Source: Desulfatiglandales bacterium
GTDB lineage: Bacteria; Desulfobacterota; DSM-4660; Desulfatiglandales; Desulfatiglandaceae
Reading direction: 5' to 3'
NCBI GenBank assembly: GCA_963666345.1
Contig: OY762721.1
Coordinates: 1,856,001 to 1,920,000 of the forward strand
Length of the DNA stretch: 64,000 nt
Shown: positions 45,001 to 48,000 of the stretch, one piece after another
How positions within the stretch are numbered: position 1 is the first letter of the stretch
Layout of the letters: the number at the start of each line of letters is the position of its first letter
Position numbers: made by a program

Positions 45001-48000
45001 ATCTGACCTGCAAGCGAAACCACATCCTGGAATGTCTGCATAACAGATGTCATAAATCTTGCCGGTTCATCATGCAGCCTGCAGCTTATGGCGGCATTTG
45101 CAAAGGAGCTCGACCTTAGCCCGGGGAACATCTTTTTGCGAGTCTTTGAAAGGTAATTCATTAACCGGGGCTCACTCCAGCTCTCCGGGGCACGATTCAT
45201 GTGGTATGCTATCGGAAACAGGATGACCGTTTTACCGGTTAACCTGTGGAGGATCTCGGCCCACGGGAGGTATTTGTCCCATTTTCTTTCATTTAATCCA
45301 TGGAAAAAAATGAGCGCCTCCTTTGATTTGGAGCAAGAAGGGCCTTTGATTATGCTGTATTTGAATGAATTATTCCGGGTTATGGCCTTGTCAAGTCCCA
45401 ATATATCCCGCTGAAAATCCGGTTTATCGCATACGCCCGAAAAATCGGCGGGAAACTGGCTCCTTTTGCCGCAAAGACTTATACTCTCCAAAAACCTGGA
45501 ATTTCCTTTTGAAAAAAAAGGCTGATTGAGAACCTGTATCCCCTTTTCAGGGAGATATACGACTTCGTCAACCTGATTGAATTTCAAGTTGAAATATCTG
45601 GAATCATCTATTAGAGACATAGCTTCTTCATCTGAGCAGACCGGCTATCCTGATCAAGGCCTGATAGAATTCCTCATGACTTTACCTGTCAAGGAAAAAG
45701 GCTCACCCTCTCTATCTTACAGGTTGATTGAAATAGCCCAGCTCAAGGTCGGGACACGCATCCTTGAGGATGGAAATCATTTTCTTCATGCCCATGCCGG
45801 GCTGTTCTGAACAGGGCATGCTTTCAAGATAAAATGCTGGGTCAATGTTCAGGTTTTTGAGGTGTATGAAGTTTACACCCGTTTTTTCAACAAGCGCCAG
45901 GAGTGCCTCCAGCTCCTTTTCCTGATCCGATATCCCTGGAAAGACAAGGTAATTGATCATGGTGTATATGCCCATATCCCGTGAAAGCCTGACGGATTCC
46001 ACCACATCATCGAAACCATAGCCCTTCGGCCGATAGTAGGCATCATACAAGGATTTCCTGGGACTGTTGAGGCTTATTCTGATGGAATCTAGCCCGCTTG
46101 AGATTATCTTTTTCACCATCCCCGGAAGGCTGCCGTTTGTGTTGAGATTGATCGTGCCCTTGTCCGTGCCCTTTCTCATATCACTTATGCTCTCCACGAT
46201 AAGTGCATGCTCTGTCAAAGGCTCACCCTCACAGCCCTGGCCGAAGCTTACAATAGGGTTGGGAGCGTTCTTCAGATGATTGAGCGCAATAGATACGAGT
46301 TCCTCCCTGCCTGGCCTGAACGCCAGCCTTGCGTGCGAGGCCTCAAATGATCCCTCCGGCTGCAGGGAAAGGCAGCCAAGGCATCCGGCATTGCAGCTCT
46401 GACTTACAGGAAGCGGGGCCTCCCATCTTCTGAGAAACAGGTTTTTAGCGGCAAAACAGTGGTTAACCGTGGCACAATTTATAAGATGCTTTGTAAGAGG
46501 CCCCGCACCATATTCATCCCTGAATCTGTCGATTGCCGTAATCAATTCCCGGTCGTCATAATTTGCAGGGTCCCATGTGTGGTTATATTCGATCTGGAAA
46601 CCGGCGACCCGGTAGCTGTCATCCCTGAAACCGACCGCGGTGTAGGCCCACATCGGAAGATCATAATCCTTTTCACCGTAATCGGCGGCCGGAAGGTGTG
46701 TCCTCACGAATCCGGGCTCAAGAAATGCCGATACCGCGTTGCACCTGACCTTTTTTCCCGACACATCCTCTTCTTCGATCCGAACAAGCTCACCGCTTTC
46801 CGGATCAACCCCGATAGGCGGGCATTTGGGAAGAAAAAACAGTTTGCTGAATTCAGGCATTGAGATGAGATCGCTTTCATCCAGCTCCACAGGCTTATCC
46901 CCTGAAAAGGCGGCCATGCGCAGATACGGATGTTCATAGATTTTACCTTCATCATCGGCGTACAGCATAAAAGGAAGCCGTTCCAGATCCATTTCTAATT
47001 TGTTCCTTTCCTTTACTCTTTAATTTTTACGACTTTGTAAAAAGTCCATTCTTGTACCTCGTTTGCACACAAGAGCAGGTGCCGGGGCTCTTTCAGGAGG
47101 CCTTATCTCACAAAAAAATACCACAGGAAGATGCAGTGGCCGCAGACCGCGCTTTCTTCCCGGGAGCCCTATCAGCTTAGGTAATGCATACAAAAGCCCG
47201 GGGATGCGGCCACTTTTCCGTAAGAAATAGAGAAGGCCGGAGAAAGAGTGCCGGCGCCTGCGCGCACCGGCTGCAGCCTAAGACCCTGAGTTTTCTCTTG
47301 CAATAGCCCTATGGCCTATATCAGTGCGATAATATGCATCCTTCCAGCCTATCTTCTTGACTATGTCATACGCCTTATCCCTGGCACTGCTCACCTTCCG
47401 ACCCAGTGCGGTCACGCACAGCACCCTGCCGCCGTTTGTAACTATCTTTCCGTCCCGCATCCTGGTGCCCGCATGAAACACCTTGTAACCCCTTTCATCC
47501 AGGCCTCCCAGACCCTCTATAACGTCTCCCTTCCGGTATTCTATAGGATACCCCCCGGCAGCCATTACCACCCCGAGGGACGATCTTTCATCCCAGAGTG
47601 CCTCTACTTCGTTCAATCGTCCGTCAAGGGCTGCAAGGCAAAGCTCCACAAGGTCCGATTTAAGCCTCAGGATTATCGGCTGTGTCTCAGGATCTCCAAA
47701 ACGGCAGTTGTATTCAAGTACCTTGGGTGTACCATCCTTCTGGATCATCAGCCCCGCGTAGAGGAACCCGATGTAAGGGACACCCTCTTCAGCCATGCCC
47801 TTTACGGTCGGTTCAATAACCTCTTTCATGGCCCGCTGGTAGATCTCATCGGTAAGCACCGGGGCCGGCGAATAGGCGCCCATACCTCCGGTGTTTGGTC
47901 CCTTATCACCATTGTCTCTGGTCTTATGATCCTGAGAAGTGGCTAGAGGCAGTATGTTTTTCCCATCGGTCATTACGATGAAACTTGCCTCTTCACCCCT

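Follow-up and report, generated by a model that had tools for sequence, protein, structure and literature searches.

The window analysed here, a stretch of 64,000 nt from contig OY762721.1 of a Desulfatiglandales bacterium, contains a structured core module lying between a radical SAM protein gene and purD (phosphoribosylglycinamide synthetase), with 10 nt between the stop codon of purD and the core (Table 1). An earlier survey of the genome had reported the module together with two conserved motifs, and on re-reading the sequence the module and both motifs were present at that position. The core corresponds to G000:C1:1903061-1903268 according to R1, the covariance model used throughout (G000 is the 4.16-Mb genome that contains the window), and it belongs to the 35 full copies of this genome. 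In its predicted anatomy about 26 pairs form the lower helix and about 18 the upper one, with a conserved, mostly unpaired A-rich stretch of the 5' arm between them and a variable tip. The A-rich stretch is near-invariant in the 35 copies and across 30 genomes and has no partner in the opposite arm, and the three pairs beside this bulge are constant in 29-30 of the 30 genomes. The apical region carries insertions of about 20 nt in some genomes, and the 35-40 nt ahead of the core have a weak consensus (alignment A1).

Table 1. Features of the window, in window positions, with the parts of the reported core and the other copies
Feature	Position	Strand	Remarks
Partial copy	15525..15612	+	3' 87 nt of core; nhmmer 79 bits, model positions 113-199
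Full copy	19663..19864	+	nhmmer 197 bits
Two adjacent full copies	23597..24101	+	23597-23795 and 23904-24101, S spacer between
Radical SAM protein gene (neighbour)	45712..46992	-	Pfam Radical_SAM
Left flank	47036..47060	+	like the 3' end of the S spacer preceding most other copies
Whole core module	47061..47268	+	R1 match 238 bits, model positions 1-208
Lower helix, 5' strands	47075..47109	+	P1 47075-47094, P2 47099-47109; pairs with 47230-47261 (MFE fold)
Long motif	47103-47127
A-rich conserved stretch	47110..47133	+	mostly unpaired; CCAC at its end, then variable tail
Upper helix P3, 5' strand	47134..47148	+	partner 47201-47214
Apical region	47149..47200	+	variable in sequence and length; low conservation
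Upper helix, 3' strand	47201..47214	+
Internal loop, 3' side	47215..47229	+	weakly conserved, bases beside P2 excepted
Short motif	47227-47236
Lower helix, 3' strands	47230..47261	+	P2 47230-47238, P1 47242-47261
purD (neighbour)	47278..48624	-	Pfam GARS_A, GARS_N, GARS_C
Full copy with S spacer and collapsed core	51564..51890	+	full copy 51564-51762, S spacer 51794-51862, collapsed 24-nt core 51867-51890
S spacer, full copy, truncated S	57953..58321	+	five heptamers in S; full copy 58052-58247

The module is a member of a multi-copy family, as the survey had claimed. Iterated nhmmer found 46 places in G000, 35 full (>100 bits) and 11 partial, and blastn gave 44 HSPs at about 42 places with 75-92% identity; small differences from the figures of the survey result from the different alignments. 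The median pairwise identity of the G000 copies is 79%, and the two adjacent copies of the window (23597-23795 and 23904-24101) sit on different branches of the copy tree. In this genome the core is combined head to tail with a 93-nt spacer S that contains heptamer repeats (S-core-S-core); S matches at 29 places, and there are 27 arrays with at least three heptamers. The tandem units of 293 nt described earlier were also recovered, three of them at a spacing of exactly 293 nt (G000 positions 1682467, 1682760 and 1683053). The copies had been called intergenic, and indeed no copy lies in a convincing gene, although ORFs of 73-251 aa overlap some of them; these consist mostly of repeat sequence and are considered artefacts of crude ORF calling. 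Protein coding by the core was rejected on account of stops in all three frames in most copies and core lengths (182-192 nt) that differ by non-multiples of three, and a consistent open frame was absent. Six or seven G000 cores have collapsed at one short direct repeat (7-8 nt) at the hairpin base, and other deletions in the elements fall at microhomologies. Deletion between these direct repeats explains the collapsed cores, which were for this reason rejected as attachment sites. All of them are in the common orientation and thus give no support to a simple loss of wrongly oriented hairpins.

The distribution of the family is patchy, in agreement with the survey: counting G000, R1 has matches in 34 of 151 genomes of the order, and without it the families give 3 of 54, 16 of 34 and 14 of 53. 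The matches are full-length with 49-86 bits. A further 150 genomes of the phylum sample gave none, and within the limits of these searches the family is confined to one order, in which the core is common to three families. Absence from Rfam 15 was likewise borne out for four G000 loci (no match at E<=1), and six loci of the genera g53 and g55 had no match at E<=1 in Rfam 15 either, 6S RNA and HEARO included. A blastn search for the core on plasmids or phages gave no match. No literature joining 'Desulfatiglans' with MITEs was found, and a term search of a large MITE survey (PMC11602168) turned up one mention of Desulfobaccales phages and one general remark on secondary structures.

The helices covary, as had been proposed. 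Over 44 pairs in 30 genomes 94.2% of the cells are paired, and double changes occur in 37 of the 44 pairs (208 cells), that is in 21 of 26 pairs of the lower and 16 of 18 pairs of the upper helix. In 500 shuffles such values were never reached, and when the partners are shifted by 1-3 columns no more than 47% of the cells pair. One strand folds better than the other: the RNAalifold energy in G000 is -23.6 or -22.8 for the given strand versus -10.8 for the complement, the consensus energy across genera is -62.7 versus -48.8, and that of 20 G098 copies (G098 being a closed relative) -57.7 versus -49.1. Copy by copy, the given strand is the more stable one in 33 of 35 cases with DNA parameters and in 27 of 35 with RNA parameters. 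G-U cells also outnumber A-C cells by 105 to 18 in 33 pairs of G000 and by 55 to 8 in G098, and at one pair G-U is the commonest state in 15 of the 30 genomes. A mutation bias of the replication strands was rejected as the source of the G-U excess, since the unpaired columns run in the opposite direction (188 A-C-making versus 140 G-U-making changes). Both the energies and the G-U/A-C asymmetry show selection for the fold of one strand, as the survey had suggested.

These data bear directly on two explanations that do without a working single-strand fold. In one of them the element has no function at all, the palindrome being kept by template-switch correction between its arms and the conserved stretch reflecting recent common descent. 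Hairpin-related rearrangements are frequent in the elements and private changes look neutral, as this explanation would have it, but descent alone does not explain near-invariant stretches at a median identity of 79% and with sharing among three families, and correction from arm to arm would remove the unpaired bulge and would not prefer G-T over A-C; we consider it highly improbable. The other is a double-stranded DNA site in which the A-tract and its flanks bind or bend around a host protein while the arms are a relic of the origin of the element. The most conserved part is indeed an A run with fixed neighbours, and it is constant whatever the inverted repeats of the shell, which suggests a host factor and not a transposase. 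Such a site is nevertheless improbable, as it leaves the double changes in 37 of 44 pairs and the strand asymmetry unexplained.

The orientation of the copies in G000 is tied to replication. The cumulative GC skew of this genome reaches its minimum at 2.14 Mb; an abrupt change of sign follows at 2.16 Mb, and two dnaA genes are located at 2.154 and 2.163 Mb. With respect to the replichores, the given strand is on the lagging-strand side in 32 of 35 full copies and in 27 of 30 loci (two-sided binomial p about 4e-7 and 8e-6, respectively), so that the orientation bias reported previously stands, and a given-strand transcript would run head-on to replication in those 32 copies. Two local bursts do not account for the bias, since copies of both replichores are intermingled on the copy tree, with at least five moves between replichores that keep the rule. 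A polar motif of the Chi/KOPS type was also rejected: 41 8-mers of the core occur in 18 copies or more, and outside the elements none of them has a skew above 0.7. In G098 the orientations are 16 versus 10 of 27 matches, with one ambiguous, and show no clear replication bias, the origin there being set from dnaA alone, without a skew profile, and the terminus assumed to be opposite.

The neighbouring genes are diverse, unrelated housekeeping genes, and the orientation of the copies has no relation to them: 8 copies in G000 and 2 elsewhere are co-directional with both neighbours, and 8 and 7, respectively, are antisense to both. This matters for the idea of a cis-acting RNA element in the messages of the neighbours, which would serve as terminator, insulator, stabiliser or processing site. 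Such roles have been ascribed to MITEs and REP elements of bacteria (PMC3184786, PMC10969869), the copies of the present family are placed between genes and frequently 10-100 nt from a gene end, and at the reported copy a minus-strand terminator-like hairpin with a T-rich tail directly follows purD. On the other hand, the orientation to the neighbours is mixed, and with selection on one strand many copies would be transcribed as the complement that folds worse. The reported copy is among these, because purD and the radical SAM gene are both on the minus strand and read-through would yield the complement and not the given strand. A role in the messages thus appears quite improbable.

The survey had described the core as riding in different outer sequences in different genera, and this was confirmed, one of the shells being a bona fide MITE. 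The g53/g55 elements, which are about 310 bp long (range 285-325 bp), end in inverted repeats of about 22 nt and are flanked by an AT-rich target duplication of 8 bp. Their inverted-repeat motif occurs 40-75 times per genome versus 0-1 times for a control pattern. The 8-bp flanking repeats could be assessed in 16 elements, all at one offset, and agree at 8 of 8 positions in four elements, 7 in five, 6 in three, 5 in three and 4 in one. Terminal inverted repeats flank the core in several further genomes, and other genera carry other ends. The core sits in at least four different shells; copy numbers are 35 full copies in G000 and 27 matches in G098. Inverted ends were not found at the G000 copies, where the flanking S units are direct repeats, and no target duplication was seen there by inspection. 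Short g53/g55 forms of 91-97 bp were considered as empty shells that would prove insertion of the core, but parts of the core are still present in them, and they have arisen by internal deletion.

A partner transposase was not found in the searches made. No transposase domain was detected in 55 scanned neighbour proteins, IS66-type transposases had no matches in G098, G074, G092 and G038, the only ISL3-type gene of G098 is broken and far from any end motif, and of two G098 intervals that are bounded by end motifs and were considered as candidates, neither contains a transposase. A Y2/IS91 search of G000 gave no matches, but its control was likewise silent and the result is uninformative. The 17 matches to Y1 transposase genes in G000, three longer proteins among them, have no core or S unit beside them, the nearest being a solo S unit 2.7 kb off, and a REPIN/RAYT system was rejected on this ground, the three longer Y1 proteins being present yet not flanked by either unit. 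An omega RNA of TnpB was rejected as well (PF07282 has no match in G000), and so was a bridge RNA of IS110, for G000 has a single IS110 gene, with no core in its vicinity and only a solo S unit some 490 nt downstream. No TnpB, IscB-type or IS110 gene adjoins any copy. An integron-integrase gene is located in G000 at 1.359 Mb, with one copy within 25 kb.

The level at which the constraint operates can be seen from the variants. Among those present in at least three copies 91 are G-U and none A-C, and among those in at most two copies 14 are G-U and 18 A-C. Shared variants number 1.07 per column in the conserved parts and 5.24 elsewhere, being about five times rarer in the former, while singletons number 0.48 and 0.64 per column, respectively; the test on 124 singletons (rate ratio 0.74, p about 0.2) has little power. 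Constraint is thus visible in variants shared by sub-lineages and not in copy-private changes. With private changes near-even and lineage variants depleted in the conserved parts, the resident copies seem not to be individually maintained, and the 35 loci would then not be 35 maintained genes.

It seems that the module is best read as the conserved hairpin at the centre of small mobile repeats that are not autonomous, a cis-acting part of their multiplication that folds as a single strand, and we give this reading a probability of roughly 45%. Constraint at the level of lineages suggests that fold and bulge would be required in cis for a copy to produce further copies, and the active form might be single-stranded DNA exposed during replication, which within this reading we slightly favour over RNA. 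The MITE shell of g53/g55, the patchiness across the order and the diverse neighbours were counted for a mobile element, and the replication-tied orientation, the mixed gene orientation, the collapsed cores and the lack of an upstream promoter-like site in G000 as signs of action at the DNA level. Several observations count against the reading: G098 is without a clear replication bias, no partner transposase was found in the searches described, and the strand that folds better is on the leading-strand template, contrary to the situation in IS200/IS605. In addition, inverted repeats and an 8-bp duplication point to double-strand cut-or-copy transposition, which is not known to need an internal single-strand fold. 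The tolerance of G-U, the conserved wobble position and the conserved unpaired motif fit RNA at least equally well.

The survey had interpreted the family as a mobile non-coding RNA gene, of which the family, the covariation, the selection on one strand and the shells hold, whereas an RNA gene kept as such is not supported. A structured non-coding RNA cargo in mobile shells is a somewhat less likely explanation: the given strand would be transcribed, form a rod with a conserved A-rich bulge and act in trans, serving the host or assisting the element as a cofactor when it transposes, much as guide RNAs do for some insertion sequences. The strong covariation, G-U far above A-C (and commonest at one pair in half of the 30 genomes), the conserved unpaired motif and the presence of one core in different shells all agree with it, and the lineage-level pattern fits too if the RNA served the spread of the element. 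Moreover, abutted g53 ends with an 8-bp spacer would give weak -35 and -10 boxes reading into the given strand, with 4/6 matches in each box and a 16-nt spacing; junction promoters occur in circle-forming insertion sequences. A consensus scan of the given strand for sigma-70-like sites upstream, on the other hand, was positive in none of the 35 copies of G000 and in 2 of the 30 taken from other genomes; the window has no promoter-like site between 46800 and 47500, and the core is not followed by a T-tailed terminator. Conservation is limited to the core, so every shell would need a promoter of its own. Transcription head-on to replication in 32 of 35 G000 copies, an orientation unrelated to neighbouring genes, private mutations that are not clearly depleted in conserved parts, the lack of a TnpB gene and of a core copy adjacent to the sole IS110 gene in G000, and the lack of an Rfam match all weigh against the RNA cargo as well.

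In miniature transposons the ends normally matter and the middle is taken as filler. In the present family it is the middle that three families of the order have conserved, two long helices are kept through dozens of double changes, and selection is on one strand only. On a wider proposal the core would be a portable module acting in cis, which some factor reads as a folded single strand of RNA or DNA and which unrelated non-autonomous transposons of this order need to multiply. We regard this generalisation as doubtful, but if true it would mean that transposons carry a new class of structured nucleic acid with a role comparable to that of guide or bridge RNAs, although the inverted repeats and 8-bp duplications of these elements are ordinary. 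Should spread depend on the fold, small bacterial transposons would have a step in their movement in which a single-stranded form or an RNA is used, and this would be recognised by a factor of the host or of the element. For annotation, these roughly 35 covarying loci per genome are better labelled mobile-element cores until transcripts are shown.

Among known systems, Correia/NEMIS, ERIC, RUP and MITEAba12 resemble the elements described here in being about 300 bp long, non-coding, multi-copy and intergenic with hairpin potential, and the g53/g55 elements share with them terminal inverted repeats, target duplications and internal-deletion derivatives. MITEs usually have conserved ends and a variable interior, whereas in the present family the interior is conserved and the ends change between genera. 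Pairing in the interior is also under selection specific to one strand, our searches revealed no autonomous partner, and the G000 form is without inverted ends and occurs in head-to-tail arrays. Likeness to 6S RNA, to omega RNA/HEARO and to the IS110 bridge RNA lies in the length of about 200 nt, the long interrupted helix and the large internal loop, and the latter two are also encoded inside an element. In contrast to 6S RNA the core is multi-copy and patchy; its loop is conserved where guide RNAs have a variable guide loop, there is no TnpB, IscB-type or IS110 neighbour, and the core has no Rfam 15 match at E<=1.

PMC5027513 describes folded single strands as the working form of IS200/IS605 elements, with an orientation tied to replication and the active folded strand on the lagging-strand template (the IS608 rule). 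The G000 form resembles IS200/IS605, PATEs and REP/REPIN in its lack of inverted ends and duplications, its tandem insertions and its replication-tied orientation, and G000 carries Y1 transposase genes as IS200/IS605/RAYT systems do. Unlike in IS608, the better-folding strand is here on the template of the leading strand, and a single 200-nt rod takes the place of the two small subterminal hairpins of IS200/IS605. No core copy flanks a Y1 gene and G000 has no TnpB gene, which sets the family apart from IS200/IS605 and REPIN.

The attC sites of integrons are comparable in that structure is conserved together with unpaired bases and one strand is active, and G000 has an integron-integrase gene. 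The length of attC is 57-141 nt. The core, in contrast, is 200 nt long, and its copies are single and dispersed between housekeeping genes, not placed at the ends of cassettes. The heptamers also do not fit the purine-rich core-site consensus (PMC5371416), the core-site motifs having been judged by eye. In sedentary integron arrays the active attC strand is on the leading-strand template (PMC5371416), and among the systems checked this is the only one in print with the arrangement seen in G000, where the better-folding strand avoids the lagging-strand template.

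The survey's finding had described the sequence between a radical-SAM gene and purD as a multi-copy structured module, and this was confirmed: it occurs at 46 places in its own genome (G000, a single contig of 4,162,108 bases), its helices covary in 30 genomes, and ten loci matched no family of Rfam 15 at E<=1. The 46 places, obtained with an iterated profile search, are 35 full and 11 partial cores (blastn of the core gave 44 HSPs of 75-92% identity), and the window holds six more copies or pieces besides the reported one. The core fits best as the conserved centre of a family of non-autonomous mobile repeats, a centre that folds strand-specifically. 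At the reported copy the two genes are 285 nt apart, and the core unit takes up most of that space. Folded as RNA it reached an MFE of -92.1 kcal/mol (z = -4.0 against shuffles), and the complement folds about equally in this single copy (-94.9). On the minus strand, directly 3' of the purD stop (window 47250-47271), we observed a terminator-like hairpin of 8 pairs (7 G-C) with a T-rich tail, formed by the core's 3' end together with the 10 bases that follow; both other close window copies (51564 and 58052) have this 3' extension too.

Features at the reported copy, in window coordinates
Feature	Position	Strand	Basis
Radical-SAM gene, neighbour	45712-46992	-	
Core unit, 208 nt, long interrupted hairpin	47061-47268	+	folding
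Helix	47075-47094/47242-47261		
Helix	47099-47109/47230-47238		
A-rich conserved stretch	47110-47125		
Helix	47134-47148/47201-47214		
purD, neighbour	47278-48624	-	

An alignment of one copy from each of 30 genomes gave a consensus fold of 45 predicted pairs with -62.7 kcal/mol on the given strand (that of the reported copy) versus -48.8 on the complement. In the 44 pairs counted in the two long helices, 94.2% of 1317 cells are paired, and double changes occur in 37 of the pairs, in 208 cells. None of 500 shuffles attained any of the five pairing measures, and shifting the partners by 1-3 columns left 47% of cells or fewer paired. The A-rich stretch, which ends in CCAC, is near-invariant, as are the three pairs adjacent to the bulge, and the hairpin tip varies in both length and sequence. 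A covariance model (R1) built from the 35 full copies matched 34 of the order's 151 genomes over its full length, with 49-86 bits (3/54, 16/34 and 14/53 in the separate families). A phylum sample of 150 further genomes, of which 146 do not belong to the order, yielded no R1 hit; blastn of the core against plasmid and phage collections gave no match.

The strand asymmetry is also seen in G000, where the consensus energy is -23.6 or -22.8 for the given strand versus -10.8 for the complement, and the given strand is the more stable in 33/35 copies with DNA parameters and 27/35 with RNA parameters, by 4.5 kcal/mol per copy on average. Predicted pairs contain 105 G-U versus 18 A-C cells (55 versus 8 in 20 copies of the closed relative G098). 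Mutation bias was ruled out as the cause of this excess because the trend is opposite in columns outside the pairs, where A-C-creating transitions (188) exceed G-U-creating ones (140). Among variants present in at least three copies G-U counts 91 and A-C 0, and among those in one or two copies 14 and 18. With three almost identical tandem copies removed, so that 32 of the 35 rows remained, private substitutions were close to uniform: the 42 columns of strongest conservation hold 20 (0.48 per column) and the remaining 162 hold 104 (0.64 per column), a ratio of 0.74 with p ~0.2 by our own arithmetic. Shared variants number 1.07 versus 5.24 per column. Weak as the test is, this pattern is expected if fold and bulge are required for leaving descendants while residents drift, and speaks against 35 individually maintained genes, mild selection on residents still being compatible.

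The family in G000 is old, since the 35 cores have a median pairwise identity of 79%, with a maximum of 94.6% outside tandem neighbours. Most cores are preceded and/or followed, in the same orientation, by a 93-nt spacer of 2-5 heptamers and an A-run, which matches 29 places; 27 arrays have at least three heptamers, and spacer-core units repeat with a 293-nt period at 1,682,467-1,683,252. Arrays often terminate in a 24-nt collapsed core, in which a 7-8-nt direct repeat, present at the foot of each arm, bounds the loss of the entire hairpin; the junction is identical in six or seven cases. No inverted ends were found around the G000 copies, and inspection by eye showed no target duplication. 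Runs of TTGAAYCC/GGATCC-type short repeats followed by a TATA-like box lie 3' of spacer-core arrays and just 5' of the next gene (window ~19946-20010 and after several others, e.g. G000 1761500-1761620 and 3750900-3750990), and could act as promoter modules or form a third family of repeats. A further short repeat with GGTTCCCGGTTTC adjoins some core copies and an IS110 gene (G000 near 1122640, 2028940, 3086900 and 3772000).

Inverted repeats of ~22 nt flank the core in two genera (g53, g55) and in several further genomes; this motif is present 40-75 times per genome versus 0-1 for the reversed control. Sixteen elements (277-325 bp) could be assessed: the 8 bases beyond the two ends match 8/8 in 4 of them, 7/8 in 5, 6/8 in 3, 5/8 in 3 and 4/8 in 1, all at one offset and in AT-rich targets, and this type is a classical MITE. 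Short forms of 91-97 bp were rejected as empty shells; they retain core pieces and are internal deletions at short repeats. The ends differ in other genomes, and the bulge is unlikely to be the transposase's site because it stays constant across different shell ends. The search for a partner transposase found none: an IS66-type one was absent from the four genomes checked, G098 has a single broken ISL3-type gene, its two candidate intervals contain no transposase, and there is none among 55 neighbour proteins. A divergent subfamily in G062 and G098 (L075:201-501, L080:79-379, L085:77-377) shares the inverted repeats and the 8-bp duplications but carries other sequence in place of the A-rich bulge, and is missing among the R1 matches listed. 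Another G098 subfamily (L097, L101, L103-L106, L109, L110, L115) has copies that look closely alike, suggestive of recent activity, and lies in both orientations inside one replichore (L078, L101 and L105 contain N in parts). Outside the window, G000:C1:1359039-1359980 carries an integron-integrase gene (TIGR02249, 472 bits, cut-off 265) with one in-frame TGA; the place may hold a chromosomal integron, and only one core copy lies within 25 kb.

The claimed orientation relative to the replication fork holds in G000. Cumulative GC skew is lowest at 2.14 Mb and highest at 0.12 Mb, and the origin was placed at the sharp sign switch (2.16 Mb), beside two full-length dnaA-like genes 9 kb apart (2154127-2154606, +, and 2163464-2163943, -; 444 and 448 aa). 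A DnaA-domain search also gave 15 equal-score matches at 15 places (L003-L008 and others), 247-aa open frames that presumably encode the helper ATPase of an IS21-type insertion sequence with at least 15 copies. The given strand is on the lagging-strand side, and therefore template of the leading strand, in 32/35 full copies (27/30 loci; exceptions at 1,987,825, 2,085,863 and 2,259,080) and 10/11 partial ones, while only about 60% of genes are co-oriented with replication. Since all four neighbour-gene arrangements occur (14, 8, 8 and 5), the bias is tied to replication and not to transcription. Two local bursts as its source were ruled out, as replichores intermix at least five times on the copy tree. 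None of the conserved core 8-mers shows strong skew elsewhere in G000. In the origin-proximal 1.96-2.09 Mb, 5/7 cores and heptamer arrays are in the 'wrong' orientation; this stretch has the GC skew usual for the left replichore and also a weak gene strand bias.

Of the proposed mobile RNA gene in MITE-like shells, the shells and selection on the fold of one strand stand; that the core itself is an RNA gene is possible but rather doubtful, as nothing found demands it and several findings oppose it. A promoter-like site upstream on the given strand was present in 0/35 G000 copies, in only 2/30 others and nowhere in window 46800-47500, and no T-tail lies 3' of the core. Orientation is independent of neighbours also at 29 loci elsewhere (12 divergent, 7 antisense to both, 5 convergent, 2 sense to both, 3 without upstream ORF), transcription of the given strand in G000 would oppose replication, and read-through from purD at the reported copy would yield the complement. 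G-U tolerance fits both RNA and DNA. The link of orientation to replication and the recurrent hairpin-collapse deletions argue for a core that works in DNA form. Three points count against the DNA form. In G098, with its recently active subfamily, orientation is 16 versus 10 (origin from dnaA only); a shell of inverted repeats and duplications has no known need of a single-strand fold; and the orientation rule of IS608-type elements (PMC5027513) names the strand opposite to that of the G000 core.
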